Shown one piece after another: positions 3,001 to 61,883 of a stretch of DNA of 64,000 bases. Position numbers and translations under genes: made by a program. The first letter of the stretch is position 1. Every line of letters begins with the position of its first letter. The stretch covers positions 180,759 to 244,758 of the forward strand of contig NW_027103826.1 in the NCBI RefSeq assembly GCF_902728285.1. The letters run 5' to 3'. Source of the stretch: Clytia hemisphaerica (Eukaryota). The notes under the pieces were generated by a model that made no database searches, was not told where the DNA came from, and saw only the letters and a list, made by a program, of their open reading frames with translations.

Positions 3001-6000
3001 AGTTAACAGCCATAAAAGGCATTCATATAACCAACTAAGATTTATTTATCATCAGTCTTTAAAGAAATTACCTGGAAATGAGGCTTAACCAGTTTCCAAG
3101 ATCTGGCATTGTATACACTGAAAATAAAAGAGTTTGTAAAATTTAAAAATTTCATTGCACTACATGACCAAAGTAATTGTGTTTAGAAACGCAGAAATTA
3201 TTCTTGAAATAGATACTAGTCTTAATTACAATTAAATGACAGTTCATTAAAAGTAGGAGTCCATTTGAAATTGAATTAACACCTGTTTGGCAAAAGCAAA
3301 TCCAGTAGGGTAATAGTCCAAAAAAAGTCAAATAAAGTAATAAACTTCTTTTTGTCAGTGGACATCAAGCAAAGATGAAACATTGAGCTCTTTACACCCT
3401 TTTCTTAAGACAGGATTTTGTATTTGTTGGGTTTTGAAATTAAAGATTGTCCGTCTATTTTTTAGTATTTAAAAAACTTTACATACCCTTGATTCAAGTA
3501 GCTTAGACATTGTTGTAATACCCTTGGTGCAATATAAGTTTGTTTCCTGTGAGCATCTAAAATCTTCAACATCAAGCCAGTGACTTGTTCTAAATTTCAA
3601 AAAATTTATATAATCTTTTTTAAACATTCTTTTTAAACGAATTTTATCTTCCGTTGGCAGCTTAAAGCAGGTTCAGTTTCTTTAAACTAAACTTAGAATT
3701 AGTGGGGTCGTTTAGCATAATTTACAGGAAAACAATAAGATCTAGCTGAAACTTTCTCCAGACCTTCTCTATAGGATGGTTATGCCTCAGGAAAAATTCC
3801 CCTAAAATCCCTCTGGTGGAACATCCCTTTTTTGGGACATTTCTTTTTTCCCCAGGCAAAACCCTAAGGACGAAATTTCAAACTCATTTTCAGACATTAT
3901 CAAGTATACCATTCGAAAGCTCTTGAAAAACTATATAGAAGACTTTTGAACGGGTATAGCCGATTTCATTACCTAACTCAAGATAATTCACGCAGAAGAT
4001 GCTATTTATGGTCAATTTTGACCAAAGTGTGGCGAAAAGTGGAACTTGCGCATGAAATATCTCGAGTTAGGTAAGGAAATCAGCTATAACCGTTTAAAAG
4101 TCTTCTATATAGTTTTTCGAGAGCTTTCGAATGGTATACATGATATTGTCATGAAATAAGTTTGAAATTTTCAAAAAATTTCGCCCTTAGGATTTTGCCT
4201 GATGTCCCAAAAAAGGGATATTCCACCAGCGGGATTTTAGGGGAATTTTTCCTGAGGTATAAGTATCCTATAGAGAAGGTCTGGAGAAAGTTTCAGCTAG
4301 ATCTTATTTTTTTCCTACAAACAGCCTGTATTTTTGTAACACGACCACACTAAATAATGTTTTGTACAAACCTGAGTAGTTTTTGTCGTAAAAGTCTGCA
4401 AATTTACTAAACTCTTTTTCCTCTGAACCTGGACAACCATATCTAAAACGAAAATGATCAAAACATTTGAGGAATCCTTCTTTTTCTGAATTTTTTAAAT
4501 GCTTGTTTTCTTTTTGTACCTGAACAGTTTCGAGTTTTCCTAATTTCGAAAATAAGAAAAATTTCTCAGGATGATGACAATTGAAATAATAACCTCTCAA
4601 AAACCTTGTGCAAGACAGTGATAGCCCATTTCTTAGCTTTCCACCAGGAAAGTTGTGAACGATCATCCTCGTCATATTGAAGGCTTGCCTGAAATAAAAT
4701 CAATTATTACTTCCAAAAATAAATAATGATAAGTATATGTAATCACATGATAACGAGTGCAATTCGAATATAATTGCACGAGTGATTTTTTTGTTATTAA
4801 TTTTCCGAGTCCGAAAGGACGAGGAAAATTCTAAACAAAAAAATCACGAGTGCAATTTTCGAATTATACGAGTTATTATGTGATTACGAGCTAATCGCAC
4901 ATTGGCTTTCACTACTTTTTCCCAGTTAGGAAAAAAATTACAGAAATTACACTGAGAGTTTTATACTTTTCTCTTCTCTTTACGTCTTTCTTTTATTGTT
5001 GTTTATTGTCTTTATTGATTGATTTTCTTTCTCACAAAATAAATTTCGAATGCAATTAAAACGTTCGATGCAAAAAGAATGTAAGAAAAAACATTAAAAT
5101 AAATTTTGTAAACATTGGCGCGGTATTAGAGAGTGTGATTAACGATTAATTGCTCTCTACAGGATGCAATTAACGATTAATTGCTCTCTTTGAGGGCGTG
5201 CCAAATAAGAAAAAATAACCCATCGTGCGATTATGAGTGTTAACAAAAACAACAAAATGTTTAATACTTTGTGTTTCAAAATTGAGCTTCATTGTAACTT
5301 TAACGCCCCCCCCAGCGGCTTGCATGAATGCGTGAATGAACTTTTTCACTTGTGTGAATGTGTGAGTTGGAAAAACTTTATGTGAACAAAATTTGCGCGA
5401 TTCCGTGAATTGAAGTTCAAATGGGGGATTTTCCAAATGGGAGATTTTCCACCATAAAACAAAATATTTTGGAAAAAACTAAGCTTACCTCTGGAACTGG
5501 CTTTTCCAAAACAGTTTTGAAAAGTCCCATCCATTGTGGGAAGTTATTTTGGTTGATAATGTTCAATGGTAAATGAAGCTGAAAGAAACCATTTAAAAAG
5601 GTTTCAGTAATTATGCTTGTTGTGTTTGACAAGCGAAATAATCAAGATTATTATATACCATACAGATTTAAAATAGAGGGTAGAAAATACAAAACAGAAA
5701 AGGCATTATTTGAACTTACTTGAATTAAAGCTCTAAATATTTTGAAAACTTTTGTGATAAGGAGGTACGATTCAAGCGAGTCATCTTTCACCCACGAAGC
5801 ACAACGGCTATGGAGGATTGGTAAAAACACATTCATGATTTCTTCAATGGTTCCCCTGTCTTCTTTTGTCTTGAATCTAAAAGATAAAAAAATTCCATTC
5901 AAATGACATTCACATTTTAACCTTTACCACACCGAGGCCGTAACTTTACGTTTTAAGCGATAGGTTAGGCCGTAAATATACGTTTTTCGTGTGGTCTTAA

Positions 6001-8315: not shown

Positions 8316-8559
8316 CTGAATAGAAAAACAAAATATAATTTACCACTTAGTTTTTATAAAAAATTAATTAAGTTAAATGAATTAAAATTAATTAAAATGA
8401 GTTAAATTTAATGCAGATTTCAAAGAACATTTATCTCATAGGGTAAAAATAAAGTGAAAAAGAGTTATTTATAATGCAGAAAGTGTGCATTATAATGTCA
8501 TAAGTAATCTTTGGTTACAGAATCATTTATTTGAATTAGGTCATGTTATATGTTCATGT

Positions 8560-11506: not shown

Positions 11507-11657
11507 AGCGGGATTTCTGATGTTTTGAAAAATAGTCAGAAATCTAGTATCTTATCGGTTCCGGACGAATGTTCCGGCATGCGAATTATTGAGCATGCGC
11601 ATAAAAGGGGAGAAGTTATCACTCGTGTCATCTCGCATCAAACGTAAGGTCGCGTTC
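11507..11657 (+). repeat. DIRS-like element terminal direct repeat A1.
   Basis: Identical, apart from 1 mismatch, to 17026-17176 (agcgggatttctgatgttttgaaaaatagtcagaaatc...aaacgtaaggtcgcgttc). Confidence 0.85.
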
Positions 11658-11661
11658 CAAA

Positions 11662-12414
11662 ATGGCAGAATCTGAAAGTCAAGAAGCTTCAACTCAACAA
11701 CTAACTCAACAACTGCAGAACGCCATCAGTGATTTATCAACTTTGAAAAGGGATACACAAGATGCTCTCAACCAATTCAAAGACCATCAGAAAACCTCGA
11801 TTGAAAAATTCAATAAGAAATTGGAAAGAAAAAGAAAAATCGACCAAGTATTTTTTAATAAACCAGGAAACGAAGAGCAGTACAAACATGCCAAACAAGT
11901 ATTAGAATCAATGGAGAATGTTGAAGAAGCTATCACCGAAAATCGTCTAGAGGACGCCAAAAAAGCATTAGAGGAGGGTAAGGAGCTTGTTAATTATCGA
12001 ATGAAAATTGTTAAGATAGCGGATAGGGAAGGATGGGGCTGCGTGAAGCATTTTATTGCTGACAATTTGGTTTCGGGAACAGAAGAGGAAAAGCGTCTCA
12101 AGAAAGCTATAAAGGACTACTCTAAATCGAAATTAGAACACGCAAAAAATAGAGGGAACTCTGACAATAACAAAAAATTTCGACCTTATTCGTCATCAAC
12201 ATTTACACCATATCAAAACGATAGGAGCAATGAGAATTCTAATAGCTACAAAAGTTCATATGTTTATCAAGGAGATTCACTCAGAAAGAAAATGGAAACG
12301 ATTTATTGCTTTAATTGCAAGTCTGTTGGTCATTATTCTTTTCACTGTCCATTTCCATCCTCCAGAGACAATAATCTTAAGATTCCAAACCTCGAAAAAG
12401 GAGACGGTAATTAG
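11662..12414 (+). CDS. Gag-like protein of the DIRS-like element. It has an N-terminal coiled-coil region and a zinc-knuckle-like CFNCKSVGHYSFHC motif.
   Basis: 250-aa ORF directly downstream of repeat A1. It contains a C-x2-C-x4-H-x4-C motif and basic/acidic low-complexity stretches typical of retroelement gag. Confidence 0.7.
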   Translation: MAESESQEASTQQLTQQLQNAISDLSTLKRDTQDALNQFKDHQKTSIEKFNKKLERKRKIDQVFFNKPGNEEQYKHAKQVLESMENVEEAITENRLEDAKKALEEGKELVNYRMKIVKIADREGWGCVKHFIADNLVSGTEEEKRLKKAIKDYSKSKLEHAKNRGNSDNNKKFRPYSSSTFTPYQNDRSNENSNSYKSSYVYQGDSLRKKMETIYCFNCKSVGHYSFHCPFPSSRDNNLKIPNLEKGDGN

Positions 12415-12476
12415 ACGATCAAAACAGTCAATAACAAGTTGTGTTTTTTCTTATGACATTTTGAGCTTATATATAT

Positions 12477-14645
12477 TTGTTATTTGTTTTTTGTGTGTGT
12501 TTCACATTTGAAATCATATATCGAGTTATGTTTCATTTACTTTGTACACGTTCAGAGAGATATTGGGAAATCGAAGAAAACGAACAAGCCTCGGTAGCAG
12601 GAAAGATTCAGAAATTTGCTAAATTTTGGGAATCGGAGCTAGATGCACCACCTTTTATTCTAGACATCGTCAAAACCGGCTACAGTCTTCCATTCATTAC
12701 TACGCCTCCCCCAGCCTACAGCAGAAACAACAAGTCCAGTAAGAGAGAGCACATATTCACTGAAAAATCGATTAAAGAGCTTTTGAAAAATAATTGTATA
12801 CAGGAAGTCGATTACATTCCCCACTGTGTCAACCCCCTTTCAGTTGCAGAAAGAAATAATAAATTGAGGCTTGTTCTTGATCTTCGAAACGTTAATAAGT
12901 ACATTCAAGTGAATAAATTTAAATACGAAAATCTTAAGACGGCTTCCGATTTGATTGATTCTGATGATTTCATGATCACTTTCGACTTGAAGAGCGGTTA
13001 TCACCACGTCCCAATTAACGCTAACTTTTATACGTATCTGGGTTTCTCATGGGAGTTCGACGGCGTAACCAAATACTTCGTTTTTGTAGTGTTACCTTTC
13101 GGTTTATGTTCAGCATGTTGGGTCTTTACAAAGTTAATGCGTCAATTAGTGAAAAAATGGAGAGGTCAAGGGATTAAGTCGATTATGTATCTTGATGACG
13201 GAATCGCAGCTGGGTATCCGAAGTCGCTAATGATTGTACAACGTAATAGCATGGTATCCGATCTTATGTCCTCCGGTCTAACAATTAACATCAAGAAGTC
13301 TTCTTTGGAGCCTGAAATAGAAAAAGAATGGCTAGGCTTTACGATTAACACCAACGACATGCGTATGTACATCCCTAATAAAAAATTAAAAGCTGTTTTG
13401 AGTTTTTTAGATACTATTTTGAGATTCGATTACGTCACCACAAGAAGTATCGCAAAGTTTGCAGGGCGTATAATCGCCATGTCTATCGCCATAGGCCCTT
13501 TGACCAGACTTTTTACGAGACAAATGTATAAATTCATTGACGATAAGAATTCGTTAGGTTGTACATGGGATAGCTATCGCCCATTAACAACAGAAGTAAA
13601 ATCGGAACTTACCTTTTGGAAATCTAATCTATCAGCGGTGAACGGCTTAGAATTTAAAACGTCTCCTGAAATTACTAAGATCTGCTATAGTGATGCAAGC
13701 CAATACGCATATGGAGGTTTTATAGTCGAAAAATTGAACAACGTCATAGCTCAAGGTAATTTCTCTAACTTCGAAGCCAACACTAGTTCCACGTATAGAG
13801 AGCTTTCTGCTGTAAAAAACGTTTTATCATCTCTTGCTCACAAGCTAAAAAATAACGCAGTTCAATGGAATTCTGATAACGAAAATGTAACAAGAATAAT
13901 TAATGCCGGCAGTACAAAAGAATATCTACAAAAGTTAGCAATTGACATTTATAATATTAACGTTCGTAACAACATCAGGCTTTATCCTCAATGGATCCCT
14001 AGAGAGAAAAATCAAATCGCTGACAGTATCAAAAATCGACACAGATAATTGCTATTGATAACAGACATTTAATTACATTCAAAACACTTATCGTTTTTAC
14101 AATAAAATTCGCTGACAATAAAAACACTAAACAGAGAGATTCAACTCAAAGAACGACACAGATATATTGGATCTATTGATAACGACGACATTAATTACAA
14201 ATTACATTCAAAACACTTATGGCATGGTTTTTCAATTTAATAGATAGATTAGACATTCGCTGACAATAAAAACACAAGACAAAAGATTCGAGAGTCAATC
14301 AAAGAACTTTTGAACTTTGAAATACAGAGGAAGGTTAAGGAGGTTAATGCATTCGTAAGTCACTGGGGAAACGAGATAAATTGGCTATGTCCACCAACAT
14401 ATCTCATTGGAAAAGCTATAAAACACTTAAAGTTGTGTAGAGCAAAAGGAGTGTTGTTTGTACCGGTATGGAAGTCTTCTTACTTTTGGCCATTACTTAC
14501 AAGAGACGGTATAAACTTTGAAAGTTTTATCAAACATTTTCTAGTTTTGGATCCATTTTATTTCAACTATTCTAGAACAAAATCTGTTTTTGAAGGCTTT
14601 GCAAAATTTTATGCTTTGGCATTACTTATTGATTTTTCGGAATAA
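12477..14645 (+). pseudogene. DIRS-like pol (reverse transcriptase plus RNase H). The ORF is broken after RNase H motif NQIAD by a ~150-bp internal tandem duplication (14035-14300), and the RH C-terminal tail resumes in ORF 14310..14645.
   Basis: RT motifs FDLKSGYHHVPI, LPFGL and YLDDGIAAG; RNase H motif IPREKNQIADSI; C-terminal LFVPVWKSSYFWPLL resembles the DIRS pol tail (PxWxxxxWF). Two near-duplicate blocks 'tcgctgaca(a/g)taaaaa..cgacacagata..ttgataac..ttaattaca..ttcaaaacacttat' lie between the two ORF parts. Confidence 0.8.
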
Positions 14646-15023
14646 AAGACGAAATAATTACTTAACAAAATTAATTTCTTGTTTTATGTTCTACATGATG
14701 CCGAGAAACGAACGAAGCTACGGATATTGAACGGTATGAGGAACGAACGGACCACGAAAATTGAGGACTACGAGGACCGGTGAACCAGAGATTGGTTTAG
14801 GCACATGCCAGCCCACAGGTGTCATAGGTGCACAGTGAGGCATTACAATCATTGATTATATACGTATTGGCCAGTTCGCTGGTGTCAAAGGTACACAGTG
14901 AGGCAAGATGAACGATATCAACGGTTAGAGATTGAATCAGGTATGAGAGATTAAAAATTTTATTCCCCCTTTTTCTTTCGTTACTTGTAGAATCCCTTAT
15001 GTTCGGAATTTGGCGAAAATTAG

Positions 15024-15824
15024 ATGACATCAAAGACAACAAGCTTAGATCAATCGCATCCTCCCTTCCAACCTTGGTTAAATCAGCATACGCCGATTCC
15101 ACTTTGCAAAAAATACAAGCCTGCCTGGAATAAATGGATCTCCTGGGCCGCACAGTTTGACGAAATATGCCCCTGCCCGGCCACGCCTTTCTACGTTGCG
15201 GTTTACTTGAACGACATAGTGTCCAATAACGGAAAAATTGGTACTCTAGACGTAGCTATTTCAGCAATAAGATGGGGTCATTTGAATTCGGGTTTAGAAT
15301 CGCCTACAGATCATCCATTTGTAAAGTTAGCCTTAGAAGGAGGAAAAAGAATAATAGCAAGAGGGGGAGGAAAAGTATCCAGACAAAAAGAGCCTTTGGA
15401 TTCAGAGCTTCTGAAACAAATTGTTGACGAATATGGCCAATCTAAGAACCTGATGGATCTTCGTTTCGTTCTCATCTGCGTACTTGGATTTTCGGGTTTC
15501 ATGAGAATTAGCGAAATTTTGGCCCTAAAGATAAAGGATATTACTTTTGAGGATGAAGGAATTAAGATTTTTATCGAGACTTCAAAAACGGATCAACTTA
15601 GGGAAGGTCACATCCTACACATTTCCAAAACTGATACAAAGTGTTGTCCAATCTACTGGCTGAGGCATTATCTCTCAATTTCTAAGTTGGAAAAAGAAGA
15701 AGAATCTTTCCTTATATGTCGTCTTGCCAAAACGAAAATAGGCCACAACGCAATCGGAAAGTATAGCGTCTCTTATTTCCACGGTATGGACCTGACGGAA
15801 GTTTATGTCGACGGACAGTTCTGA
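15024..15824 (+). CDS. Tyrosine recombinase (phage-integrase-like) of the DIRS-like element.
   Basis: 266-aa ORF. An N-terminal core-binding-like region (…AISAIRWGHLNSG) is followed by a catalytic region with R…(LRFVLICVLGFSGFMRISE)…H-x-x-R-like residues (GHILHISKTDTK, WLRHYL). Its position after pol matches DIRS architecture. Confidence 0.75.
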   Translation: MTSKTTSLDQSHPPFQPWLNQHTPIPLCKKYKPAWNKWISWAAQFDEICPCPATPFYVAVYLNDIVSNNGKIGTLDVAISAIRWGHLNSGLESPTDHPFVKLALEGGKRIIARGGGKVSRQKEPLDSELLKQIVDEYGQSKNLMDLRFVLICVLGFSGFMRISEILALKIKDITFEDEGIKIFIETSKTDQLREGHILHISKTDTKCCPIYWLRHYLSISKLEKEEESFLICRLAKTKIGHNAIGKYSVSYFHGMDLTEVYVDGQF

Positions 15825-16139
15825 TTTTGAGGCAAAATCTTTTTTTATTAAATTGCTTTTCCTGTTAGATATTTTTAAGATTGAAAATTCCATCTATTCA
15901 TGAAGCAGGTTTATCATACATACTAGTAATCAGTGGAACAGTGTGTGTTTTTCAGCTAAACGATATCGGTAGCTTTGGGAATGGTACAAAAAGCGTAGGA
16001 TAAACCCTTATTTCTATGGTTTTTATTCCCATCTCGACTTATGAATAAGAGTAATTTTATCGAAAAAATTTTTCAAATTAAAACGAACTAATAATCAAAA
16101 TCATTGCCAAAAATTTTTTGAATGTTGAAAAAGTCAAAA

Positions 16140-16265
16140 TGTTTTCGAAAGATTTATGATTTATTTTTGATTTATTTAAGATTTATTTTTAATTTATGAT
16201 TTATTTCTGATTTATTTTTTATTTATGATTTATTTTTGATTTATTTTTGATTTATAAATGTGTGT
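16140..16265. repeat. Minisatellite (gatttatttttgatttatga)n. Related copies with similar flanks lie at 32870-33020 and 33170-33400.
   Basis: Direct reading shows tandem 10-20-bp units. The unit downstream of each array is similar at the three loci (…tgatttataaatgtgtgtacgatattaattttagtgacatgcc.ctcg / …ttgcgtacgaaatttattttagtgatttgcccctcgg). Confidence 0.7.
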
Positions 16266-17025
16266 ACGATATTAATTTTAGTGACATGCCTCTCGAATTT
16301 TAGCTGGGTTTTATGTCATGTTTCACTATAAAGTCATAAAACCTGATCTGGACAATCTATGACCCTAAAACTTTGCACGAGTACTCTTAATAAGATTTTA
16401 TTTAAACGTCAGAAAGTTTCAAGTCGTTTGAGAAATTTTTCAACGAGATACACGCTTTTTATTTTATAAAAATAAACTTTATAAGAATGTCCATGATGAA
16501 AATAGCCAAAAAATTAAGAATATGCTACGAATATCACAATCATGGAATTTTGCTACTTAAGCTAATAATTTCGATTATAAATTGTCAATTACCCCAAACT
16601 GCTCACTCCTTTCACAGAAATGTCATTTTAGGCTTGAGACGTATGTACTAAATGTTAAATCTAGTCTGAATCAGGATCCTAACCTAAGAATGTTGTAAGA
16701 ATATTTTAGGATGATTTTCCCAAAAAAGTTAAGAATATCCATGATGAAATGGATTTACACCATTCTTATAAAAAAAAGCGTGTATACACAAAAGAACTCC
16801 AGCGTGGTAGATTCTAACCCCCCCTGGGGCTAATAGGGTTAAAACCATAATGCTTTGAATAAGCGGAATAAGACATTAAAAAGATGCATCAAGAGTCAAA
16901 GGTCAAGGGTCTTTTAATGATAATCTGATTAAAATTCGATTTAAAAATATTAATACCAGTGAGACAAATATAGATTTTTTGAAAGAAAAAGTATTCTAAA
17001 ACTTGCCTTTATATTCCTTTAGTTT

Positions 17026-17176
17026 AGCGGGATTTCTGATGTTTTGAAAAATAGTCAGAAATCTAGTATCTTATCGGTTCCGGACGAATGTTCCGGCATG
17101 CGAATTATTGATCATGCGCATAAAAGGGGAGAAGTTATCACTCGTGTCATCTCGCATCAAACGTAAGGTCGCGTTC
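17026..17176 (+). repeat. DIRS-like element terminal direct repeat A2.
   Basis: Second copy of the 151-bp repeat. Confidence 0.85.
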
Positions 17177-19765
17177 TCTAACTTGAGCTACTTATGCTAA
17201 TGATTACTTTGTTTTTTATTCATGATAAACTTCCAATACGACGGACGATGACAATCATCAACCAGCTGAAATGAAGAACGAGCAGATTTATTACTTATTA
17301 TTAACATCCCATGGTTTTTTGTCCTACCAAAAGATCAGTCAGATTGGCGAACAAGGCTGACCCCTATAGCCACGGCGATCTGGGCCCGGATTCAATATTC
17401 TTTTTAACCTCGCCCTAGAACTCAGAAAAACTTATGCAACCTTATTTTTTTACATTTATCCTTTGAATATCGTTAGAATGTTGAATTAAAACATCATTTC
17501 CTGTTTTTTTGGTTGATCCGATTTTTCATAATATGGATTCCGATTCTCGTGTATCCCTTCGGGGATTTGATGTATCCCTTCGGGGATTTTTATTTTCAGG
17601 CCAAAAAATTAATTCAAAGGAAATTATAATGAAGCAAAAATTGTTGTTTTCTCAGAGGCATTATTAAGACTGACCCATTTCAATAGAGAAATTCATCAAA
17701 TGACCATTGTTAGCAGTGTGAGGGCAAAAAGTTATCATGAATCCGATTTTTTCATAATTCCAAGGCCAGATCGCAGGTTTTTAGTCCAGGGGAAGAGGAT
17801 CATTAGTTCAGGGGTCCTCTAAGTTATTTATAATTATTCAGAAGAATCAAAGAACGGATCGACAAACCAATAAAGTTATTAAAGAACCGTCACTCATCAA
17901 GTCAAAGATACATTGGAGAATATCGTAATTATACTAAGAGAACTGAACTGGAATACTGAGATGATACGAGATTCGTGAACGGGTTAATAAAATCGAATAA
18001 TCTCATGATACAACACACAGTACCAGAGGAACATAAATATGAATGTATATATGTACGGCTATTTATTATTGTCAATAACTTATATATTTATCATTACTTT
18101 GTCAATTTATTACTTGACTTGTATTTACCGACCTTGCGTTACCGTTACGAAGATAGTCCAAATGTCTACAATTTATTGTTTAAATCCTTTTGATAACTGA
18201 TAAGGAGGAAAAGTTAAGATAGGGTTATTTCTTTTGAAAAGCGAGGATAAAAGGATATCTTAATAACGTTCATTACAAAACCTAATTTGTATGTTTTGTG
18301 AGAAAAATTCAATTTTTTGGGACCTCACTATGGCGAGGGTTTTTAATACCAACTTTTTTTTCGATACCAACCTTTTTTTTGATACCAACTTTTTTTGAAA
18401 AAAGTTGGTATTAAAAACCCTTTTGGTATGGACCTCACACTGTGAATTCGATCAAAGTGTGTATTTAAAAATATTTTATTTTATAGTATTGTTTGTACGT
18501 TTGATACACCATCCTTTTTTAATATTTTTTAAAAAAGAACCTGTAATTAAAATATTATTCATTAGTTATCTATTACACCCATGTCTCAAAATTCGTTATA
18601 ATGAAGAAATTAATCGGATGAAAGGAGATATCGTAAACACTCTAGGGTTACCCAAAGTCAGGAAAAAGAAAATCGCAAAACAGGTTTATAACACTGACCT
18701 TTATATATCTCTGGACCAAGCTATATCCACCATCTTTGATTATTGAAATTTGGTACCCGCAAAGAAGCCACTGTAGTGTTTGAAACTTTGCCTAACGACA
18801 AACGGCGCTACATTATTAGACGGCGTTACATTTATCCAGAACCAATTTTTGACAAAGTCACAACCCGTGATCGTCTACAACAAAAGAAATCCATTAACTC
18901 GAAACATTTCCATTGTTTTCAGGAAGCTCTCTTTTCATTCCTGGGTAACTTTCGCAAAATGAGCAAGTATTCACAATTCTTTTGCCTTCAAAGTTTTCTG
19001 AACTGGAAATCGATCGATAAAGTTTTTTTAGCTGGAATGTTCTTTCAAGAAAAGACACTAACTTTGCCCACTTTATCCAATGATGCATAGTCTAATTTGA
19101 CCGTACACCTTACGAGCCTTTTTTATCGTTTAAGGTTAAACTTGAAGCACAGACGCCTTTTATTAAGAACGAGTAAATTTTCAGGGTTCAAATGTTTATA
19201 AGCTGTTCTTAAAATCCCGAATCCCGTCTGGTTATCGATAAAATTTCAAGTCAATTGAAACAATATTTGTCAAATTATTTAATTTTACATCCGAAATTTT
19301 TAAAGAGGAATCATGAAAGCTTCTCAAATTCATAACACACGCTGATAAAATTAGATTTCATTTATAAGGAAGCTTTTGGGGTATCTTCTGAAAATATTAT
19401 TTTGATGAAAAGCGGGAACATCATAGAAAAACATGTGCAGACGTACTGCATGACTACTTTGCCTGTTTCATTTTTCTTATAAAAACAGGACACTCAAGGA
19501 GACAGAGATGGATTTCTATTATGATGAACAGGTTACAATAGAAAAGACAAAGAAGCAATCCGCTAAGGAATTATCGTCCTCCATCCAGCTCCACCATTAC
19601 TTATCCCTGATCTGATTTCGCTAAAAGTTCGTATAAAATATTTATATGTTCTGCTTACAGTGAAATAAATAGAATCACAAAATTCTGAAGAAAATTCCCA
19701 AAAATATTTCTCGATATTCTCTTTAAACTATATTTTTAGTCTGATCCATTTCGGAAGATTATTCG

Positions 19766-25900: not shown

Positions 25901-28900
25901 GTTATCCAAATATGAGACTTAAGGATACATTTTACATCTAGCAACCGTAGCATGAAGGTAGAACCCCCGTCTACGGTTCAAGAGATTGTGGGCTGATATC
26001 AGTAGCGTAGTGGATCGATGACTAAAATTCGGACAAACTGGGGAGGCAATTTTATAAGATTTTGATTTTGGCGCCCCTTATGAAAATTAAATATCTTTTA
26101 AAGAATTACGCGAGCTAAGCGAACACAAAAATTTGGGGGTATTTTCTCTTATTTTGGCCATATATAAGTTTAAAAAGAGCGTACGGCCGCCGAAATTAGT
26201 AATTAGAGGCATTTTTTTACGCCCTTTTTATTTCAGCCCCCCCCCCCGCTGGGGGAGGGGGCCACCACGCTACTGGTTCATATCCTAGCTAGGTAGAAGA
26301 CCTCAAGAGATGGATCAAAAGTAAGTGAAGAAATTCAGGAAAAGGATTGACGCCCTCCCCTTCCAGTTGACAGCTAAAAAAAAGAGGGGAACCTTCGGGT
26401 CTCCCTCGACTGCAGTCACAAACTTTTTATGTTACATTTCATACTTACATATGTTAAAGATTCTCAGTTCATTTCGACAAAATTGTATTGTTAGGATTCT
26501 CTCACCGATATCATCATAACACACAGACTTGTGTCCTCTATAAAGAGGTGATTTAATGTCAATGTCATCATTATCTTCAATTTGGTTACAAAGCTCCACA
26601 GATGACTTGGTTACTGACCATTCTCTTATGATCTATATGAAAAATGAATTCGAAGATTTCTATATATCTATGGACCAAGTTTTTTCCACCATCTTTGAAA
26701 TGGTACCCTAATAAGCGCTACTCGATGCGGGTCAATTTGTAATTCAATTTAAAAAAAATTTCAACGACATTGAGGAATGCTCCCATTAGGGTGCCACTTT
26801 CAAGAATCTCCTATCAAAGATTAGTGATCTTAAGGATCTAGGACTTTTGAAGAGTACGGCAGGATTGAACAAAAAGAAAGCCCTTTGGGATTGATATCTC
26901 GATCGCAGCTTGATTCTATTCTTTTCATTATCAATTTTCTCGTGAGAATAGTTAATTTTAATAGGTAATTAATGGACGTTTTCAAATCTGAAGACAACTT
27001 GAAAGTTCTGTTTTGACATCGTCTTCAGGACAAAGACAGTAAAAGAAGAGAACAATAGTTTTAAATGATATGAATCCCTTAAGAATTATATCGTTATTTT
27101 TTACAAAAACTTTCCTGGATTTCAAATTTGCTCATGTGATAATAAATCTAGATAAAATCGGATAACATTTGACATTTGATTTTAAGATTTACTTCACGTC
27201 CTTATTCAAGTTGCAGTCCTAGATGCTTCAGGTCACTATTTGCTGGTTGGCAAGGGTGAAGAAGCTCTGTAAGTTTTTATGATTCGACTAAAACACAATG
27301 AGGCTCATCAATACAAAAATGGATATGGGAGAAAATGTCTGAAGCTTCCAAAAACAGCGACGTCTTTATATAACTTCAGAATCTAAAAAATGTGAGAGAA
27401 ACTTCGGCATCTTAACTCTGGCATGGTCCAACTTCTCAGGCAAGAATAGGAGCTGGCTTGACTTGGATCTATTGTGACGATTATTGGACAAATTATTCAT
27501 GAATTACATACATAGTCGTCTGATCCAGAGATGATTTTGTTTTCTGTTGGATGAAATGAAAGACAATGTATGACGTCACAATCACATGTAGCCGAACAAA
27601 GTTGATTCCCTGTAAAAAAATTGGAAAAAAATGAAATGTTGTGCAACATATTGGATATTATCAAGACCTCTTAAAATCGACAAATCCTTATCGGTAGAAG
27701 ATTCGTCAGTGAAAAAATTCGTCGGCAAAAACTATTTGTCGGCAAATCATGTCGTCGTCAAGAAAATATTTATTTATTTTCTATTGACGTAACCTCATAA
27801 ACCTAGTATCCCACTGGGAAAATTTTATCATATAAAAAACACACCTTGGAGATCCCATCCAATTATATCACCACCCAAATGAGCTGAGAAAATCATATTT
27901 AAACGTTCATTATAGCAACAATCAAACCCAGGTTTTTCAGTACACCATTTTTTGACGATTTTCAATGAATTGTTATCAAGAACTGTAATCCAGGTAGCTA
28001 TGTATCTTTCATTTGAATCCACATGTGCATGGATGTTAATTTCATTCCAACAAGCTAGAAGGTTATCACCAGTGCAAGTAAGCCATGAAGTACACAAATC
28101 CTTAGATAAATCAATAAAAATCATTTAACGTATAGATATCCTATCAATTCAGTATTGGAAATAGCAAAACATACTGTAGATGCACAGAGTTTACAGCCGG
28201 CGATGGGCCAGTAGTTAGAGAAAACTAGCCAGAAACTTAAATTTTGTACATAGGAGATATAAAGAAAAAACACTACGGTCAGATCATTTATGTACCCTTA
28301 AATGATCTGACCGTAGTGTTTTTTCTTTATATGCCACACTTATTCCTTAATTACTCATGATGTAATTACTTAAATTCATTTTTTCAAAAGCAGTTTGTTC
28401 TTAAACATGTCAAAGAAAACATAAGGTTTTATCTTCAAATTCTGAAATTGATTTTTCATTATGACCAGAGCCCTTAAGCGCATACGAAATGATTATAATG
28501 ATGATTAAAATGGCGCCTAAAATGAGCTTGGAGACATACCTTTTCAAAAATTTGAACAACATCTTCCAAAGTACCTTTGGAAATGTTGTATCTTGATATT
28601 GTTCCGACAACACCAAGTATCAAAGTTTTGCCATCCGATGAAATGGAATCAGCAGATCCCATGTCCTTGAAATCGTGAATTACTTCTCCACTATTCATAT
28701 CAAATACAGCTGTGAATTTACCAGTAATAGCAACAATATCTCTCTTCGGGTTCACTGAAACACAAGAGACTCCTCCCCTACGGTATTTAACAAGCATCGA
28801 GTCCCCTTCCATAGGGATGTTGGTCCAATATAAAGGGTAAGCCTCCCCTTTCACTAAGGGTTCCATCCCTAGGGAAAGTGTATCTTTAGTAACGAATGAA

Positions 28901-31900
28901 TTGGGTAATTGTGTTACAGCCATGTTGAGGCTAAAATTCGGCAATTCCTGAATGTAGGGTGTGTAGAGCTGAACAAAAGAAGCCCATTGTTTGAGAGCCT
29001 CTAAGTCTTCTGTATCTTTGAGAGTAGCCAAAGCAACTGAGTAATCCTCGCTTAAGCTTTGCTGTTGCTTGGCAACAATGCGGTTTTTAACGAAGTAAAG
29101 ATTTCTTAGACTTATTTTCAAGCTTTCCAAAGGTGTATCTTGGTTTTGGTGAGCTTTGAGCTGATGGTAGACCAGCTGCTCTAAGATGTTATCAAAATAC
29201 GCTGGAGGTTCCTCTTGAGGTGTTTCACAACATTGCTTGATGATAATGTCTTGGAAAAAATCTCTCATACACGCGTGTGTTTCCTGCTCGAAGGATTCCG
29301 TCATAAATTTTTGGCGCACAGCATATTTGAGCTGGTCGTGGAAGAATCGAAGATAGCCACCTCCCCCTAAAATATAGCATCTTTTTTTAGAATACAGCAA
29401 AAGCTCCATAGCTGAAATCCTGCTAACACACAACATTTTTGCAACGTTCATCTAACGTTATATGGACATTGTGAACATTAGATAAATGTTGAAAAAAGTG
29501 CTATGCCAGCTGGGAAAGCCTATCAAGCAGAGTCTTCGATCACACAAAAAAACAAAATTCTAATCTGTCTATCACGTCATTGAACTAAACACATTTCTCA
29601 TCAATCATGTATCATACCTCTTGAGATCACCATGATATCACGCCAAAAAATGCCCTATTACGCCACACCACGTAAACCATTGGAGAGGGGCTAATATCTC
29701 TAGCCACTAATCCTTTCTTGATTCAAAACAAACATTTATCAACATAGTCTCTACAAACTACAAACTAAGTTTTCATCGCTCTGACAACCTTTAGTTTTCC
29801 GAGCGTGTTCCAATTATTGAACCTTTCTACTGGCAATTGTTTATCCTATTATTAACAATTATCTTTAGGTATCTTCCTAATTGCCAGTACTTCCATTACT
29901 TACCGGCTGCTAAGAAATGAGAAATCGAATCATAAATCCTTGGGAAATTTGCATCGTACAAAAATTGTCCATCGCCTTTTTCTCTTTGTTCTTTGTAATG
30001 CAGAAGGTCATTTATTTGGTTCTCTAGCAAGCCATCTTTTGAAACACAGATTAATCCTGCTACGTCATGCACGAATAATTTGCCGTAAGTTATTGACCAA
30101 TCGTCTAAGAGGAAGCTAAACAGATCTGTAATGCTGTTTGGTAGATTCTCAATATACTGTGTCACCTTTTCGAAAATTCCAAACTTCCTCAAAGCCTCGC
30201 AAGCAGCAATTAAGTACAACGGACTTTGACTCTTAGACAATATTATCTCCATTTGGTTGCCAACTTTCGAGTCTTCATTTTCGGTTAGCTTCTTGTTGAA
30301 TCTTGCCAATGTTTCTCTGACCATTTCTTTCAAGTCTTCATGACTCATGTTTTCAACAGGAAGACATTCTGCGTCAGGAGAAACATCGAGTGCATTTTGG
30401 AAGGTCCCATTTTCTTGATTCAATGTCGAGATCATGAATTTGAGATTCTTGGGAGCATCTTTTAACGGTAGCCACCACATATCCCAAGCGCCTATATAAA
30501 AGGGATTTATGGGAATTTTAGATTTTTCAGGGCTTTCTAGGTGATAATTCAATGCATTTTTGGGATATTGTAACATTACTGGACCCTCAAAAAATAGTGT
30601 TTAATGAATCCCCGATTTGAGTCTCTCAAAATTCTTCTAAAACGTTCACACTTAAATATTTCTAGCTTTGAACTTAAGTAGCTAAGACTTTTTGCAACTG
30701 CAGTTGAGGGCGATCCGAGGGCTCCCTTTTTGTTAATTGTCTATCCAAAGGAAGACAATTAAGACAAATCTTGTCCCTGGCTTTCTCTATTTACCCTAGA
30801 CCCCTCTCTTTTACTAGTTACTAAACCTCAAGCAGAGAGACATTAACAAACATTCTGGGGTTTTCGGTCCATACCAAGGTTACCTCGGCAGAGATATACC
30901 CCATAAAACATAAAACATACCTAGCCCGCTGTGGAATTGATTGACAGCATCAATAATAATAACGAATAATTTATCTGGATATTGATTTGCACTTTCGATC
31001 AGAAATTCGTGATGTTCTTGTTTCAATTCTGAAGCATTTCCAGTAAATTCTTTGGACAATTTGGTTTCACCCCTATCTCGTCTGTATTTTCTCAAATTCA
31101 TTTGAAGTCTTCGCATCATTCCTGAAAGAAAAATTCTTGACCTTAAAAATATTACCTCGCTCGAATATTGATCCATAGATGTTCATGTAAAAATAAACAA
31201 GCCTTGGCTCAACTTTTTAGTCTAAAGCAAGAAGGATATCACTAAATACTCCTTTCTAGGATAGTATCGTTTTATTCTACTCACAAATTAGGGAAATAAT
31301 TCGAAACGGGGCATAATAATTATTATTTTGAAAAAGTTGTGATATTAGTTTGAAAAACACTATACCAAGTAAAGGTGAGCCTAAGGCTAGACTACTAAAC
31401 CACGTCGTTGTATTTCGCTGCAACTTAATCTTGCAATGAGCTCTATGTCTATATGTTCACTGAATACAATGTCAATTTCATTGTCAATGTCTTTCCAAAC
31501 CACTCGCCCGCGGAAATTTCTATTTTTATAAGAACTCTTTATAGCACTATTCCCGCATTCCTGTGTCCAAGGAAAGACAGACGCTTGCTAATCTAACTTA
31601 AGGCGAATGTTTTGCTAGTCTTTGTTCCCGTGCGAACAGGATGAGCTGAAAACGAGCACCTTACCTTCTAAAAGACTCGAACTAGGGCAAGAATCAACAG
31701 CGTGGATAAACAAAAAGTCGTTTGTCTTTTCTACTCGACTCATACAATCGACTGCAATTTTTGCCAACAAACCAGATTTTCCACACCCCGGTTCACCATG
31801 TAAAATCAGTGTGTTTGGGTAACCGCTAGTAAGACAGTGTTGATATGCTTTGTTAACAAGACCTTTACGACCAACAAATGTAGCAGCCTTTAATTTTACG

Positions 31901-32527: not shown

Positions 32528-33922
32528 CTAAAAAAAGAATCAACAAATTTGAAGATTTGGATTTCAGAGCTAACAATATATGTTATGTATATGAAGGGGA
32601 GAAAGTGCCTATTTTGCAACATTAAAAAAGAGCGACAAATTTCACCATCCCAACCCCGACCGAAAGTTAAGAGCGAGGACTTAAAACAATCTGGAAATTA
32701 TGTAAAAATACCCACAAAATGGTAAAAAAAAACGAACTTTCTAAGAACAATTTTAGGCTTCAAACTTAAAAAATTAAGAACATCAGAAGGTTTAAAAGGT
32801 TTTGGTATTCTTATAAAAAAGGTTTACACCGAGGGCAGGGGGGGGGGCAAATCACTCGAAAAATGGTGTGCGAGATTTATGATTTACTTTTGATTTATGA
32901 TTTATTTTTGATTTATGATTTATTTTAGATTTACTTTTGATTTATGAATTATTTTTTATTTCTGATTTATTTCTGATTTATTTTTGATTTATGATTTATT
33001 TATGATTTATTTTTGAATTATTTTAGATTTATCTCTAATTTATGAATAGGAGTAATTTTATGGATGCATTTTTTCAAATTACAACGAACTGATAATCAAA
33101 ATAAGTGTCAAAATTTTTTAAAAAGTTGAAAAGTCAATTTTTTTCGAAAGATTTTTTATTTATTTTTTATTTATTTCTGATTTATTTTTGATTTATGATT
33201 TATTTATGATTTATTTTTGAATTATTTTAGATTTATCTCTAATTTATGAATAGGAGTAATTTTATGGAAGCATTTTTTCAAATTACAACGAACTGATAAT
33301 CAAAATAAGTGCCAAAAAATTTAAAAAGTTGAAAAGTCAATTTTTTTCGAAAGGTTTTTTATTTATTTTTTATTTATTTTTTATTTTTGATTTATTTTTG
33401 ATTCATAAAATTGCGTACGAAATTTATTTTAGTGATTTGCCCCTCGGTTTACGCAGGCTACCTCACAATACTTACTCGTTCAAAGCATCTCTATCCTTTT
33501 TATAAGCAGAAGCATTTTTATTCACGTTGTATTGGAATTTCAATTGCAGATCTTCCATCTCTTTTTCCACATACTCAAATTCAAAAATCCATCGAAATTC
33601 TTCTGGGAATTTTACACCTTAAAAATGAAGGAAATATGTTCCGAGATTTTACCGATCTTTTTCCTCGGAAAAATATTACGGAAAAATCTCGAAACGGGTA
33701 AAATATCGAGTTTATCGTCAAGCTGTAAACGTTTCGAATTTTAGAAGGAAGAAATGATTGTTGAAGAATTGATGCTTCAAAGTCAAGGAAGTATTTTTGT
33801 TGAGAATTGGGAGAGAACTTTTATAAAGATCGCTCGTCATATGGTTTAATACAAGACACAAGAAGCCGGAGCGGCCAGCTGACGTGGCAATAACCGAATG
33901 TCGTTCGTAACGGGTTCCTTAA

Positions 33923-45959: not shown

Positions 45960-46800
45960 GAAGCATTTGAGTAAAAAAGAAAACTCTCACACCACTATGC
46001 TTATAAATAAACGTTACCAAAAACAACATCAAAACAATACAAAATATGCTTATAAAATACATCCACAATATATAGTTACCAACAACCACACCATTATGCT
46101 TATAAATAAGCGTTACGAAAAACAACATCAAAAAAATCCACAATATATAGTTACCAACAACCACACCATTATGCTTATAAATAAAAGTTACCAACAACCA
46201 CACCATTATGCTTATAAATAAACGTCACCAAAAACAACATCAAAACAATACAAAATATACCAACAAAAACAATACAAAATATCGATAACATATCAACAAC
46301 ACACAATTATGCCTATAAAAGTTACCAACAACCACACCACTATGCTTATAAATAAAAGTTACCAACAACCACACCATTATGCTTATAAATAAACGTCACC
46401 AAAAACAACATCAAAACAATACAAAATATACCAACAAAACCAATACAAAATATCGATAACATATCAACAACACACCATTATGCCTATAAAAGTTACCAAC
46501 AACAGCACCACTATGCTTATAAATAAACGTTACCAAAAACAACGTAAAAACAATACAAAATATGCTTATAAAATACACTCACAATATACAGTTACCAACA
46601 ACCACACCATTATGCTTATAAATAAACGTTACCAAAAACAACATCAAAACAATACAAAATATACTTATAAAACACACCCACAATATATAGGAAAACAACC
46701 CCAAAAACGACGTAAGCCGATAACCAACAACACATCATTATGCCTATAAAAGTTACCAAAAAACCACACTACTATGCCTATAAATAAAAGTTACCAACAA
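45960..46800. repeat. AC-rich minisatellite with units of about 60-120 bp (…accacaccattatgcttataaataaacgttaccaaaaacaacatcaaaacaatacaaaatat…).
   Basis: Direct tandem repetition. The overlapping ORFs on both strands are translation artefacts. Confidence 0.8.
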
Positions 46801-47224
46801 CGAATATACCTATCAATACTTAAATACTTAAATTATAAGATACAACATCAGAACAAAAGCTTATAAAACAAACAACACCAATTTACAACACAAATACAAA
46901 AATATCAAAATAAATACACCTAAGATACTCCTCCTACAAACAAAATACAAAGATATGCTTACATAAAAATACACAACATATGCTTTCTAAAAAAATGTAA
47001 TCTTCATAAACTAGAATTTATAAGAAACCACTTTCAAAAACGCAATAGAATAAACGAGTCCTAACGCCCATATAAATAAATAACAAGACGACTCGGAAGT
47101 CGAAAATTTCGCATAATATTCGAAATGAGAAAAATTGACCATAAAATAACGAGGTCAAGGGGGGGGGGTATCTGCTGTACAACGACGTGTTAAACGTGAT
47201 GCATGAAGAATATTGTACACGAGG

Positions 47225-47940
47225 TTGTAGCATAGTATAAGAAAGCCGCGGCTGGAATGAGTACAGCTGAATTTCTGTTGTTCTATCTATGTCGTAAGAA
47301 CGAATTTTTTTATTGTTCAGTGACAATTTCCATTGTCAATTTAATTTGACTTTTAACAAACTCCCTCGTTAGACGTAATTTTGCTCATAAACGCAAATCT
47401 CTTGATAATTCACGCATTCAAAACATCAAAGTAAAAGAAAAGACTCTTGGATTAAAAGTACTAGAACGTCAGAATATCAGTGCTTTAAGAACTTGAAGAA
47501 AATTGAGTGCCTCGAAATGCCTTCCTTATTATTCTGAAAAATTATTACTGGTATTAGTAAATAAATATTCAAGCTGCATTCTGTGAAAATTCCATTCGAA
47601 AAACAACAGTATTGAGGTGACAGCAAGCATTCAAAGTTTAACATTTGAAAATTAGTTCTTGTAATAAAATGTGTGTTACTTGGTCCTAAATTTATAAAAA
47701 ATTATTTGGAATTTATAAAAATATACTTCAAATAAGGTAATAAGAGAGGATAGTGAGAAAAATTTGAGACTTGAAAAGTAATTGTACTTCAATTGAATAT
47801 TATGAACACTTTAAAGGTTTTTGTTACCTTCGACTTAGTTCTTATAAACCACGGAGACACAGATAGAACATCCATTTACGACAAAAACAATAGCGTAATC
47901 ATTCCAGCCGCGGCTTTCTTATACTATGGTTGTAGATACC
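47225..47940. mobile_element. About 715-bp non-autonomous DNA-transposon-like element bounded by inverted copies of terminus ccatagtataagaaagccgcggctggaatga. The same terminus recurs at 24620-24660 and 40130-40185.
   Basis: Inverted termini at 47225-47290 and 47880-47940. About 470 bp of sequence upstream of the terminus at 24185-24660 is also found at 38760-39300 and 39960-40185. Confidence 0.55.
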
Positions 47941-60736: not shown

Positions 60737-61883
60737 GCCAAGGTGGTTTTGAGGTCATTGGTGTCTTCCCTTTCAATGAAATCAACAAAAGAAGCGAAGT
60801 TGATCTTCAAAATGGTGTTATGCTTGCTGAAGCAATGAGATTCGCTATCCAACAAGTCAACAAGCTTGATATACTCCACGGTTATAAATTCAATTTGACC
60901 AGTATGTTCAATTGTCTAACCGAATTTTGTGTCCGGGAAAAAATTCGTGATACTTTCTTAACAAAAACTCAATTTCTAATTGGCCCTTACTCGTCCGAGA
61001 CTTCTTATTATGGCTCTATTCTTACTGATACTTTCCAACTGCCGTCAATCAGTTACAGCGCTACATACAGTGATTTCGGACGTTACGGGCTTATGCAACG
61101 ATACATGTACCGGACAGTTCCCTCGGACGATTATCGTATTTTGGCCGCTTTACAATTTATCCGACAATCCAACTGGACGTACGTTGGCGTCATTAGTTCC
61201 CATGGTTACGATGGAGAACGTGACGCTATTCTGTTTATACGGAAACTTTCAAAATATGGTGCTTGTTTGTCAAGCCAAAGAAAAATTCCGAGATATGAAG
61301 ACACTGAAAAACATTACGAGAATATTATCGAAGAAATGCTCTCAGAAACCAGGTTAAGTGTTCTTGTTTTATTTACAACCAATAAAGATACAAGAAACAT
61401 TTTCCGAGTCTTAAAAGCGAAAAAATTAGAATCTAGATTCACAATACTGTGTATGTATGGCTGTACTAACTACTTGGATGTCGTAAATGGAAACCAGGAT
61501 ATATCAAACGGTACTTTGAGTATGTATATCCACAATACTGAAGTTGAAGAATTCAAGTCCTGGTTTTTACGCTTGAAACCTGAAAACCATCCTTTCGGAG
61601 ATCTGTACTTTAACACATTTTGGGAAAACGTATTTCACTGTCATGTTAATGAATCAGAAAATGTTAAATTGTATGACAAAAAATGCACCATGAATGAGCA
61701 ACTGGATGTCGGTCAAGGATACTACACGTCTACCCCTGTCCATACTGTTCTCGATGCAGTTTATGGTATGGCTTTGGCAACCAAAAATTTCATTGAAAAC
61801 ACATGTAACGAATTTGAATATCGAAAATTGGAGCTCAACAAAAACGTATCCATTGGAACAGCAAAACGAATTTGTTATATCGG
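60737..61883 (+). CDS. Class C GPCR exon 2 (1147 bp) encoding most of the Venus-flytrap ligand-binding domain.
   Basis: Acceptor is ttttttctgttcacag. The translation aligns to mGluR VFT: GVMLAEAMRFAIQQVN (LEAMLFALDRIN), YGACLSSQRKI (EGICIAHSYKI) and DLYFNTFWENVFHCHV (NPWFREFWEQRFRCSF). Donor is GTATGT. Confidence 0.85.

Follow-up and report, generated by a model that had tools for sequence, protein, structure and literature searches.

Within the DIRS order of retrotransposons, a methyltransferase domain separates DIRS1-like elements and PAT from Ngaro and VIPER (definitions in PMC4157794, PMC3266345, PMC6681497 and PMC7192593), and split direct repeats of the form A1...B1·A2...B2 set PAT apart from DIRS1-like elements (PMC4157794). 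PAT-like elements were not recovered as one clade in published analyses (PMC4157794, PMC6681497). In the Pat1-like 'echinoderm form', described from SpPat1 of the sea urchin, the reverse transcriptase (RT), RNase H and methyltransferase are followed by a co-oriented tyrosine recombinase (YR), and gag carries a zinc finger (PMC4157794). This form has been reported from Nematostella, Lottia and Romanomermis, and cnidarian hosts are thus already known (Szitenberg et al. 2014, PMC4157794). In the nematode form of Pat1, represented by PAT of Panagrellus redivivus, B1·A2 separates the methyltransferase from the YR, which places the YR gene in the A2-B2 interval (PMC4157794). The 64,000-nt stretch of Clytia hemisphaerica DNA analyzed here (the window) very probably holds, at 11508-18220, one defective copy of a PAT-like (Pat1-type, 'echinoderm form') DIRS-order retrotransposon. 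It is an ordinary mobile element of a known kind, and the copy is a recent insertion, yet broken.

Domain content and repeat structure together place the element in the DIRS order, as the preliminary description had proposed. Pfam profiles matched RVT_1 (E = 1.3e-14), RVT_3 and Phage_integrase (E = 2.4e-7), all on one strand (forward) and within a single repeat-bounded unit. The element therefore combines RT/RNase H with a tyrosine recombinase, the enzyme that in the DIRS order takes the place of an rve integrase or endonuclease; neither an rve integrase nor a protease was matched in the open reading frames scanned. The claim that gag, pol and YR are bracketed by the repeats was likewise borne out, through a C-X2-C-X4-H-X4-C motif in gag, RVT_1 with RNase H in pol and a partial Phage_integrase match. 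No target-site duplication was found at any of three insertions, namely the window copy (flanked by ...GGTCCA on the left and AGGGTT... on the right) and the relatives L009 and L010. Inverted self-matches at E <= 0.01 were absent within 11508-18220, L009 and L010, and the inverted pairs in the repeat scan of the window were short and non-terminal only. Inverted terminal repeats on wider inspection, and clustering of the RT or YR with LTR or Crypton elements, had been named in advance as observations that would speak against this placement; neither was seen.

The two 151-nt direct repeats reported at 11507-11657 and 17026-17176 are real (150/151 identical; blastn E = 7e-73). Judged by homology within the family, the repeat itself measures 150 nt (11508-11657 and 17027-17176); the shared leading A at 11507 and 17026 is not element sequence in intact relatives. 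The left copy, A1 (11508-11657), is also the left terminus. It is 100% identical to A2 of L011rc, an intact member of the window's own family, and homologous to the A repeats of L001, L005-7 and L008-10, all of which begin G(C/T)GGGATTTC. The gag ATG (11662) indeed falls 4 nt past the end of A1, a spacing that is repeated in the relative L001. Because GCATGCGC palindromes occur in A1, with a TATA-like ATAAAAGG some 45 nt ahead of its end, the repeat is a putative promoter. The right copy, A2 (17027-17176), was placed by its match to A1 and by homology to L011rc; in intact relatives B1 directly abuts it upstream. A2 had been taken for the right terminus, but it is internal, and the element runs about 1 kb further right, through a tail of about 0.95 kb to B2.

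That tail (17177-18132) is recognized by homology to L011rc, L006 and L001, and no conserved ORF, Rfam family or tRNA was found in it. The segment 17027-17370 is 99.7% identical to L011rc, 17775-17933 is 98-99% identical to L006 and L011rc, and the window and L001 tails share colinear blocks. Between the two segments lies a MITE-like insertion (17371-17774) that replaces 11 nt, is absent from L011rc, L006 and L001, and carries terminal inverted repeats of 16 nt at 81% identity (17375-17390 and 17759-17774). Contig L006 is a mosaic, with a distal tail 98.7% identical to the window and the remainder only 80-84% identical. The right terminus, B2, occupies 18133-18220, with an approximate start set solely through homology to L001 and L011rc. 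It is homologous to B1 of L011rc (2413-2513), L005-7 and L001, from the first of which it differs by a 19-nt deletion and a 6-nt duplication, and the homology stops exactly at ...AAGTTAAGAT, the point where A2 begins in these same relatives. No A-like sequence was found in the flank beyond B2, and the element has sharp ends, where A starts and where B stops. The earlier statement that B repeats are lacking thus holds for B1, which is deleted here, but not for B2, which lies outside the interval 11507-17176 then reported.

The family layout is A1 – gag – pol – YR – B1·A2 – non-coding tail of 0.55-1.0 kb – B2. The full A1...B1·A2...B2 series, which marks PAT-like elements, is complete in L009 and L010, which are independent genomic copies from related families; it occurs in relatives only, and the window copy has A1, A2 and B2 without B1. 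In L009, A1 spans 8340-8535, B1 (12929-13019) abuts A2 (13016-13208), and a tail of 768 nt leads to B2 (13977-14066); its A copies are 97% and its B copies 96.7% identical. L010 is arranged likewise (B copies 98.5% identical), and in L011rc a complete YR leads into B1, A2 and a tail at 99.7% identity to that of the window. In L009, L010, L005-7, L001 and L011rc the YR is followed by about 80-110 nt and then B1·A2, so that in these relatives B1·A2 lies downstream of a co-oriented YR, as in the echinoderm form. L008 has no significant B2, and its tail diverges past 234 nt. The metagenome contigs L001 and L002 look circular or tandem, forms that assembly-graph cycles could also produce. For annotation, the result delimits from end to end a PAT-like DIRS family of the model jellyfish Clytia hemisphaerica, with its B repeat and its non-coding tail of about 1 kb, both of which an 'LTR-like' repeat scan would trim away.

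The gag ORF (11662-12414; 250 aa), taken from the ORF list, is complete, and its translation contains a CCHC zinc knuckle (CFNCKSVGHYSFHC) of the kind expected of the echinoderm form, although the zf-CCHC match (18.9 bits, E = 0.0016) is under the Pfam cutoff of 20.8. Pol (12528-14645), delimited by Pfam and homologs, comprises RT, RNase H and a Dam-like methyltransferase, and 492/492 aa are identical to Clytia hemisphaerica protein A0A7M5WUR7. Its reading frame is broken at 14028-14340, at the start of the methyltransferase, where comparison with intact L004 revealed a diverged tandem duplication of about 125-150 nt and some ten small indels. The lesion contains 153 extra nt at 14146-14298 and matches itself (14029-14154 against 14146-14307) at 69% identity. 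The domain is disrupted, and the window's own remnant gave no Pfam methyltransferase match. In intact homologs, PF05869 (Dam) lies downstream of RNase H and scores above its cutoff of 28.1 bits, with 29.4 bits in P0001 (654 aa, 99% identical) and 30.5 bits in P0002 (75% identical). The pol-YR spacer holds two 36-nt direct repeats (14807-14905), found by the repeat scan and shared with L004; L001 has 109-nt tandem repeats at the matching position. Of the YR, only the N-terminal three quarters remain (14999-15794; placed by Pfam and by the intact YRs of L011rc and P0121). Its Phage_integrase match covers profile positions 5-111 of 172, its frame is shifted by two 1-nt homopolymer insertions in A and T runs (15108 and 15776), and the catalytic end present in intact family YRs (HSLRSGGAS...HGRWKS...Y) is missing. 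With a scrambled methyltransferase region, a recombinase without its catalytic end and no B1, the window copy is dead and immobile. Even so, its substitutions relative to intact relatives amount to only about 0.2%, and outside the lesions it shares 99.7-99.9% identity with independent contigs.

Homology to L005 and L011rc ends at 15794 and restarts at 17027, and the intervening 1,232 nt (15795-17026) are unrelated DNA. They include a minisatellite-bearing repeat (16039-16259), whose minisatellite (16149-16255) recurs at 32873-33403, and a MITE-like unit (16448-16785) with 19-nt terminal inverted repeats; no B-like sequence was found within 15795-17026. The preliminary description was right that this stretch of about 1.2 kb is foreign and contains a minisatellite, but simple nested insertion does not describe it, since 384 nt of the element, comprising the YR C-terminus, the 3' UTR and B1, have been replaced. 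The 'aagaacat' interspersed repeat reported there was not found elsewhere in the window; only local repeats, within the filler, were seen. The rearrangement stops precisely at B1·A2, a small clue as to whether resident copies, too, are rearranged by the recombinase.

A breakpoint of this kind brings up the alternative that two separate integrations are present, which we consider possible but doubtful. The first would be a 3'-truncated A1-gag-pol-YR copy ending at 15794 and the second an independent A-tail-B unit (17027-18220), with 15795-17026 as host DNA between them. Such a short unit could arise by A1/A2 recombination of a full copy, or if the recombinase split a circle at its identical B·A sites. 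The right breakpoint does coincide with the start of A to the nucleotide, like the genuine left end; the composite filler of unique DNA, minisatellite repeat and MITE-like unit looks less like one nested insert than like intergenic host DNA; and so few substitutions relative to intact relatives leave little time for several nested insertions and a deletion. However, this scenario needs the family to have inserted twice at a distance of 1.2 kb, both times in one orientation and in canonical order, with truncation of the first copy. A free-standing A-tail-B unit was absent from all loci of relatives examined, and A1 and A2 differ at one base, as a single insertion predicts. One rearranged element is the reading that we prefer.

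It is improbable that assembly artifacts lie behind some of the lesions of this single copy (the scrambled region at 14028-14340, the filler and the frameshifts at 15108 and 15776). One-base insertions within homopolymers such as these A and T runs are typical long-read consensus errors, and 14028-14340 is far more damaged than its neighboring sequence. Against this, the identity to independent contigs elsewhere indicates a good assembly overall, and both the filler and the tail insert show clean, single breakpoints. A further reading, to which we give similarly little weight, is that the family consists of two modules, [A-coding-B] and [A-tail-B], which share one recombination site and which the recombinase separates or exchanges at B·A; in the window the two modules may then stand apart, with 1.2 kb of host DNA between them. 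The breakpoint exactly at B1·A2, the host-like filler and the mosaic L006 make this reading compatible with the data. If true, a non-coding module would be mobile and exchangeable, and the recombinase would be driving rearrangement in the genome of an animal.

The position of the family within the DIRS order was assessed with a neighbor-joining RT tree built on the reference alignment of Ribeiro et al. 2019 (197 columns, 200 bootstraps). The window and its relatives joined the PAT-like DIRS-1_CGi, SkowPat and PAT in 71.5% of 200 bootstraps, which is moderate support, and fell outside the Gypsy references. RT identity was 45% to DIRS-1_CGi and 36% to SkowPat (both over about 180 columns) and 36% to PAT, compared with 22-34% for DIRS-like and 20-24% for Ngaro references. 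The best YR matches were again DIRS-1_CGi (E = 5e-32) and SkowPat (E = 2e-13), against E >= 3e-4 for DIRS-like references. These two elements, from Crassostrea gigas (Repbase) and Saccoglossus kowalevskii, were labeled PAT-like by Ribeiro et al. 2019 and supply the closest reference RTs and YRs (YR identity 35%); as elements of other phyla compared by RT and YR, they are only 35-45% identical to the window family. In gene order and gag zinc finger the window family resembles SpPat1 as published (PMC4157794). Like PAT of Panagrellus redivivus, the window family has split direct repeats, a methyltransferase domain and a gag zinc finger; in contrast to that nematode form, its YR precedes B1·A2 and its A2-B2 interval is non-coding.

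Of the 'Ngaro/PAT-like' label first given to the element, the PAT half is upheld by the methyltransferase, the gag zinc knuckle and the RT and YR affinities, and the Ngaro half falls. Ngaro elements also have split direct repeats (A1...B1A2B2) and a YR downstream of pol, but they lack a methyltransferase and form a separate RT clade. A Ngaro assignment fails because intact members of the window family carry the Dam-like domain, above the Pfam cutoff in both the 99%- and the 75%-identical homolog; with its RT distant in the tree and a gag zinc knuckle as in Pat1, a Ngaro-type element is highly improbable. It is equally improbable that the element is DIRS1-type and that its inverted repeats and internal complementary region (ICR) escaped detection. 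DIRS-1 of Dictyostelium and its kin do share with the window family the order, gag, RT/RNase H/methyltransferase and YR, as well as an internal repeat of the joined termini (the ICR there, B1·A2 here). However, DIRS1-like elements have inverted terminal repeats and a complementary ICR, and the assignment fails because inverted repeats are absent: the A and B repeats are direct, and the RT and YR are nearer to PAT-like references. A Ty3/Gypsy-like LTR retrotransposon with 151-bp LTRs, suggested by gag and pol between two near-identical direct repeats, can be dismissed almost entirely, given a tyrosine recombinase, no rve integrase or protease found, repeats without TG...CA ends, no target-site duplication, conserved sequence extending about 1 kb past the second repeat to B2, and an RT outside Gypsy.

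Published models for DIRS, PAT and Ngaro elements suggest how intact members of the family could move. Transcription would begin near the 3' end of A1 and stop in or near B2, and the RT would synthesize cDNA. The internal B1·A2 junction could then template both the recovery of the missing ends and the closure of a circle, whose B2·A1 joint would have the same sequence as B1·A2. At this joint the recombinase would insert the circle without a target-site duplication. By analogy, the B1·A2 junction corresponds to the ICR of DIRS-1, which is experimentally essential there (PMC7192593), and B1 is half of that junction. The family is probably still active, as intact members nearly identical to the window copy exist, also in marine sequence collections.

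The retrotransposon copy at 11508-18220 is very probably a defective member of a PAT-like family of the DIRS order, in which split direct repeats (A and B) are arranged as A1, gag, pol, tyrosine recombinase (YR), an abutting B1·A2, a non-coding tail and B2. A 151-nt sequence at 11507-11657 recurs at 17026-17176 (150/151 identical; blastn E = 7e-73), with no third copy anywhere in the 64-kb window, and this pair brackets gag, pol and YR, as the preliminary description had it. The gag ORF (11662-12414, +) contains CFNCKSVGHYSFHC, and its ATG does lie 4 nt past the end of A1. Downstream on the same strand are two pol ORFs, at 12477-14048 (Pfam RVT_1, E = 1.3e-14, and RNase H) and 14310-14645, and a YR fragment at 15024-15824 that covers only profile positions 5-111 of 172 of Pfam Phage_integrase; the rest of the YR was not found in any frame of 15795-17700. 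Exact-sequence look-ups for the window gag and for a further protein, P0080, returned no record. In several families the pol-YR spacer contains short repeats, direct or tandem, including 36-nt units at 14807-14905 of the window and 109-nt units at 3363-3789 of contig L001.

The position of the second A repeat is best understood from relatives on other contigs. Two related-family elements (pol identity ~56%) lie on long genomic contigs, L009 and L010. In L009, A1 (8340-8535) is followed by the coding region, by B1 (12929-13019) abutting A2 (13016-13208), by a 768-nt tail and by B2 (13977-14066), with the A copies 97% and the B copies 96.7% identical; L010 is organized in the same way, its tail measuring 787 nt and its B copies being 98.5% identical. 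The YR is followed by ~100 nt, B1·A2 and a tail both in the closer family of L005-L007 (nucleotide identity ~82%) and in the 75% family of L001. A metagenome DNA scan yielded one contig, L011, whose reverse complement (L011rc) belongs to the window's own family and preserves its 3' part intact, with 2 substitutions in 1453 nt relative to window 14340-15794 and 1 in 344 relative to window A2 and tail. It carries a complete YR ending in ...HSLRSGGAS...HGRWKSDQTRNRY..., a 101-nt B1 (2413-2513), an A2 that is 100% identical to window A1, and the tail. In the window, B-homologous sequence is single (~18133-18220) and ends exactly at ...AAGTTAAGAT, where A2 starts in every relative, while the 0.95-kb interval between A2 and B2 aligns colinearly with the L011rc, L006 and L001 tails. 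The element therefore extends over 11508-18220, and the second A repeat is internal rather than the right end of the element, which the preliminary description had set at 17176. Its remark that no B repeats were recognized by eye holds for 15801-17026, where a search for B1 gave alignment scores no higher than those of shuffled or background sequence, but not for the right end, where B2 is present.

Alignment of B-like sequence to the left flank scored no higher than the same background, and the outer flanks are unrelated to A or B. Neither a target-site duplication nor a shared trinucleotide was found at the ends of three insertions (the window copy, L009 and L010). By eye, the right flank past B2 resembled the beginning of A in decayed form, but its local alignment score did not differ significantly from those of 1000 shuffles and 1000 other segments of the window (P about 0.3), so an insertion into an older B/A junction was rejected. 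The tail of another relative, L008, diverges after 234 nt, so that this copy is probably truncated; a search for B2 in L008 found no significant copy. Contigs L001 and L002 have a tandem or circular appearance, with B·A at every junction and terminal overlaps, which was not counted in favor of circles, since repeats that produce cycles in the assembly graph give an identical appearance.

The family shares with PAT-like elements a methyltransferase, a gag zinc knuckle, split direct repeats and a B1·A2 that follows a YR of the same orientation, and no inverted repeats were found in the window element or in L009 and L010, in agreement with the earlier call of direct repeats. Such a combination without inverted repeats defines the PAT-like "echinoderm form" of Pat1-like elements, already known from the cnidarian Nematostella (PMC4157794). 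A Dam-like methyltransferase divides DIRS1-like elements and PAT from Ngaro and VIPER (PMC3266345, PMC4157794); in contrast to Ngaro, intact homologs of the window family possess this domain (PF05869, 29.4 and 30.5 bits; Pfam cutoff, 28.1 bits). A protein search with pol retrieved 840 homologs, the top match being P0001, an intact protein of 654 aa with 99% identity. Its 90%-identity cluster includes Clytia hemisphaerica A0A7M5WUR7 (492/492 identical to window pol), further close pol matches are likewise from Clytia, and the YR cluster includes the Clytia "Integrase / Recombinase" A0A069DM33; these matches make Clytia hemisphaerica the most likely host.

A neighbour-joining RT tree (200 bootstraps) was built from the window sequence, eleven homologs and references, with the reference alignment and group labels of Ribeiro et al. 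2019 (supplements 14 and 16). In this short, distance-based tree, 71.5% of replicates place the window family with three references that carry the PAT-like label, DIRS-1_CGi, SkowPat and PAT. Among these, DIRS-1_CGi is the closest in RT sequence (45% identity), followed by PAT and SkowPat at 36% each; the corresponding values are 22-34% for DIRS-like references, 20-24% for Ngaro and 10-13% for VIPER. Similarly, the YR is far closer to those of DIRS-1_CGi (E = 5e-32) and SkowPat (E = 2e-13) than to DIRS-like references (E of at least 3e-4). Given the nature of the RT tree, and since PAT-like elements do not form one clade in published trees (PMC4157794, PMC6681497), the assignment depends above all on repeat structure, by which the element is best described as PAT-like. 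The earlier label of Ngaro/PAT-like rather than DIRS1-like can thus be narrowed: the PAT-like part stands (split direct repeats, methyltransferase, no inverted repeats), whereas Ngaro is contradicted by the methyltransferase and the low RT identity.

Comparison with intact relatives identified five lesions, which refines the preliminary description: the copy is defective. The first (14028-14340) is a diverged tandem duplication with about ten small indels that destroyed the start of the methyltransferase region. Second, single-base homopolymer insertions at 15108 and 15776 shift the YR frame, and these could be consensus errors. Third, 384 nt comprising the YR catalytic end, 3' UTR and B1 are replaced by 1232 nt of unrelated DNA (15795-17026). 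In the fourth, a MITE-like sequence of 404 nt has inserted into the tail (17371-17774; TIRs at 17375-17390 and 17759-17774), and the fifth, in B2, combines a 19-nt deletion with a 6-nt duplication. Substitution divergence from intact relatives is only about 0.2%; therefore, either the copy is young or the family is very homogeneous. In the otherwise intact copy on L004, gag is split into two ORFs by 2 extra bases (471-472, relative to window 12006), while the window gag is uninterrupted, so that lesions differ between copies of the family.

The preliminary description had recognized the ~1.2 kb before the second A repeat as unrelated to the element, and it indeed contains foreign repeats, one bearing a minisatellite and the other a MITE-like unit whose TIRs are 19 nt long. 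The minisatellite recurs at 32873-33403, in an array of 11/29/40-nt minisatellite and a ~220-nt repeat like that at 16039-16259 of the filler (82-87% identity), and L008 has a short match to it (5157-5204). The right breakpoint of the replacement falls, to the nucleotide, on the B1/A2 junction. A single element may have been hit by an unusual indel, which would make the endpoint at B1/A2 a coincidence; in favor of this, the parts keep their canonical order and one orientation, and A1 and A2 are nearly identical. Alternatively, the recombinase possibly acted at the internal B1/A2 junction. It is also possible that the locus holds two units: a coding unit that was cut short and, beyond intervening host DNA, an independent A-tail-B unit. 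The very low divergence and a filler that is composite and resembles host DNA somewhat favor this arrangement, but the order, orientation and near-identical A repeats argue against it.

For a PAT-like element of this kind, the protein set, A/B repeats, sharp ends and lack of target-site duplication are observed features, while a putative replication cycle can be taken from models for DIRS-1, PAT and Ngaro (PMC3266345, PMC6681497, PMC7192593). RNA is predicted to start inside A1, close to its end at about 11620-11650, and to stop in or near B2, and the internal B1·A2 junction would then restore the missing ends. A circle with a joint identical to B1/A2 would be made, and the YR would insert it at this joint. 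About 45 nt upstream of the A1 end there is a TATA-like ATAAAAGG with GCATGCGC palindromes in front of it, and the palindromes are kept in the L001, L005-7 and L008 families. The counterpart internal region of DIRS-1, the ICR, is essential by experiment (PMC7192593); by analogy, the window copy, which lacks B1 and a catalytic YR, is predicted to be immobile even with proteins supplied in trans.

Searches of the tail found neither an Rfam family nor a tRNA, nor any ORF that is conserved between families; tails of the window family have no nucleotide similarity to those of L009 and L010. The distal tail of L006 (2000-2158) is 98.7% identical to window 17775-17933, whereas the remainder of L006 (YR, B1 and A2) is only 80-84% identical, which indicates that L006 is a mosaic and hence that sub-families have apparently recombined.

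About 115 nt past the right end of the element, 18336-18432 contains a perfect 24-nt inverted repeat (18336-18359 and 18398-18421) made of 18-nt tandem units ATACCAACTTTTTTTTCG, which could form a hairpin or represent a small MITE-like element. Two ORFs, at 28474-29451 (-; 325 aa) and 29896-30576 (-; 226 aa), had no Pfam match. Strand composition is strongly biased at 46001-48000 (GC skew -0.26, AT skew +0.27), where GC is low (0.30). An 862-aa ORF at 51325-53913 (-) with an RVT_1 domain (E = 1e-9) is a second retroelement, unrelated to the PAT-like copy, in a stretch that is locally rich in GC (0.41-0.47 at 50-54 kb). Finally, a 359-aa ORF at 60820-61899 (+) encodes an ANF_receptor ligand-binding domain (E = 7e-31) and probably belongs to a host class-C receptor gene as one of its exons; the closest homologs of this ORF are metagenome proteins with 62% identity.
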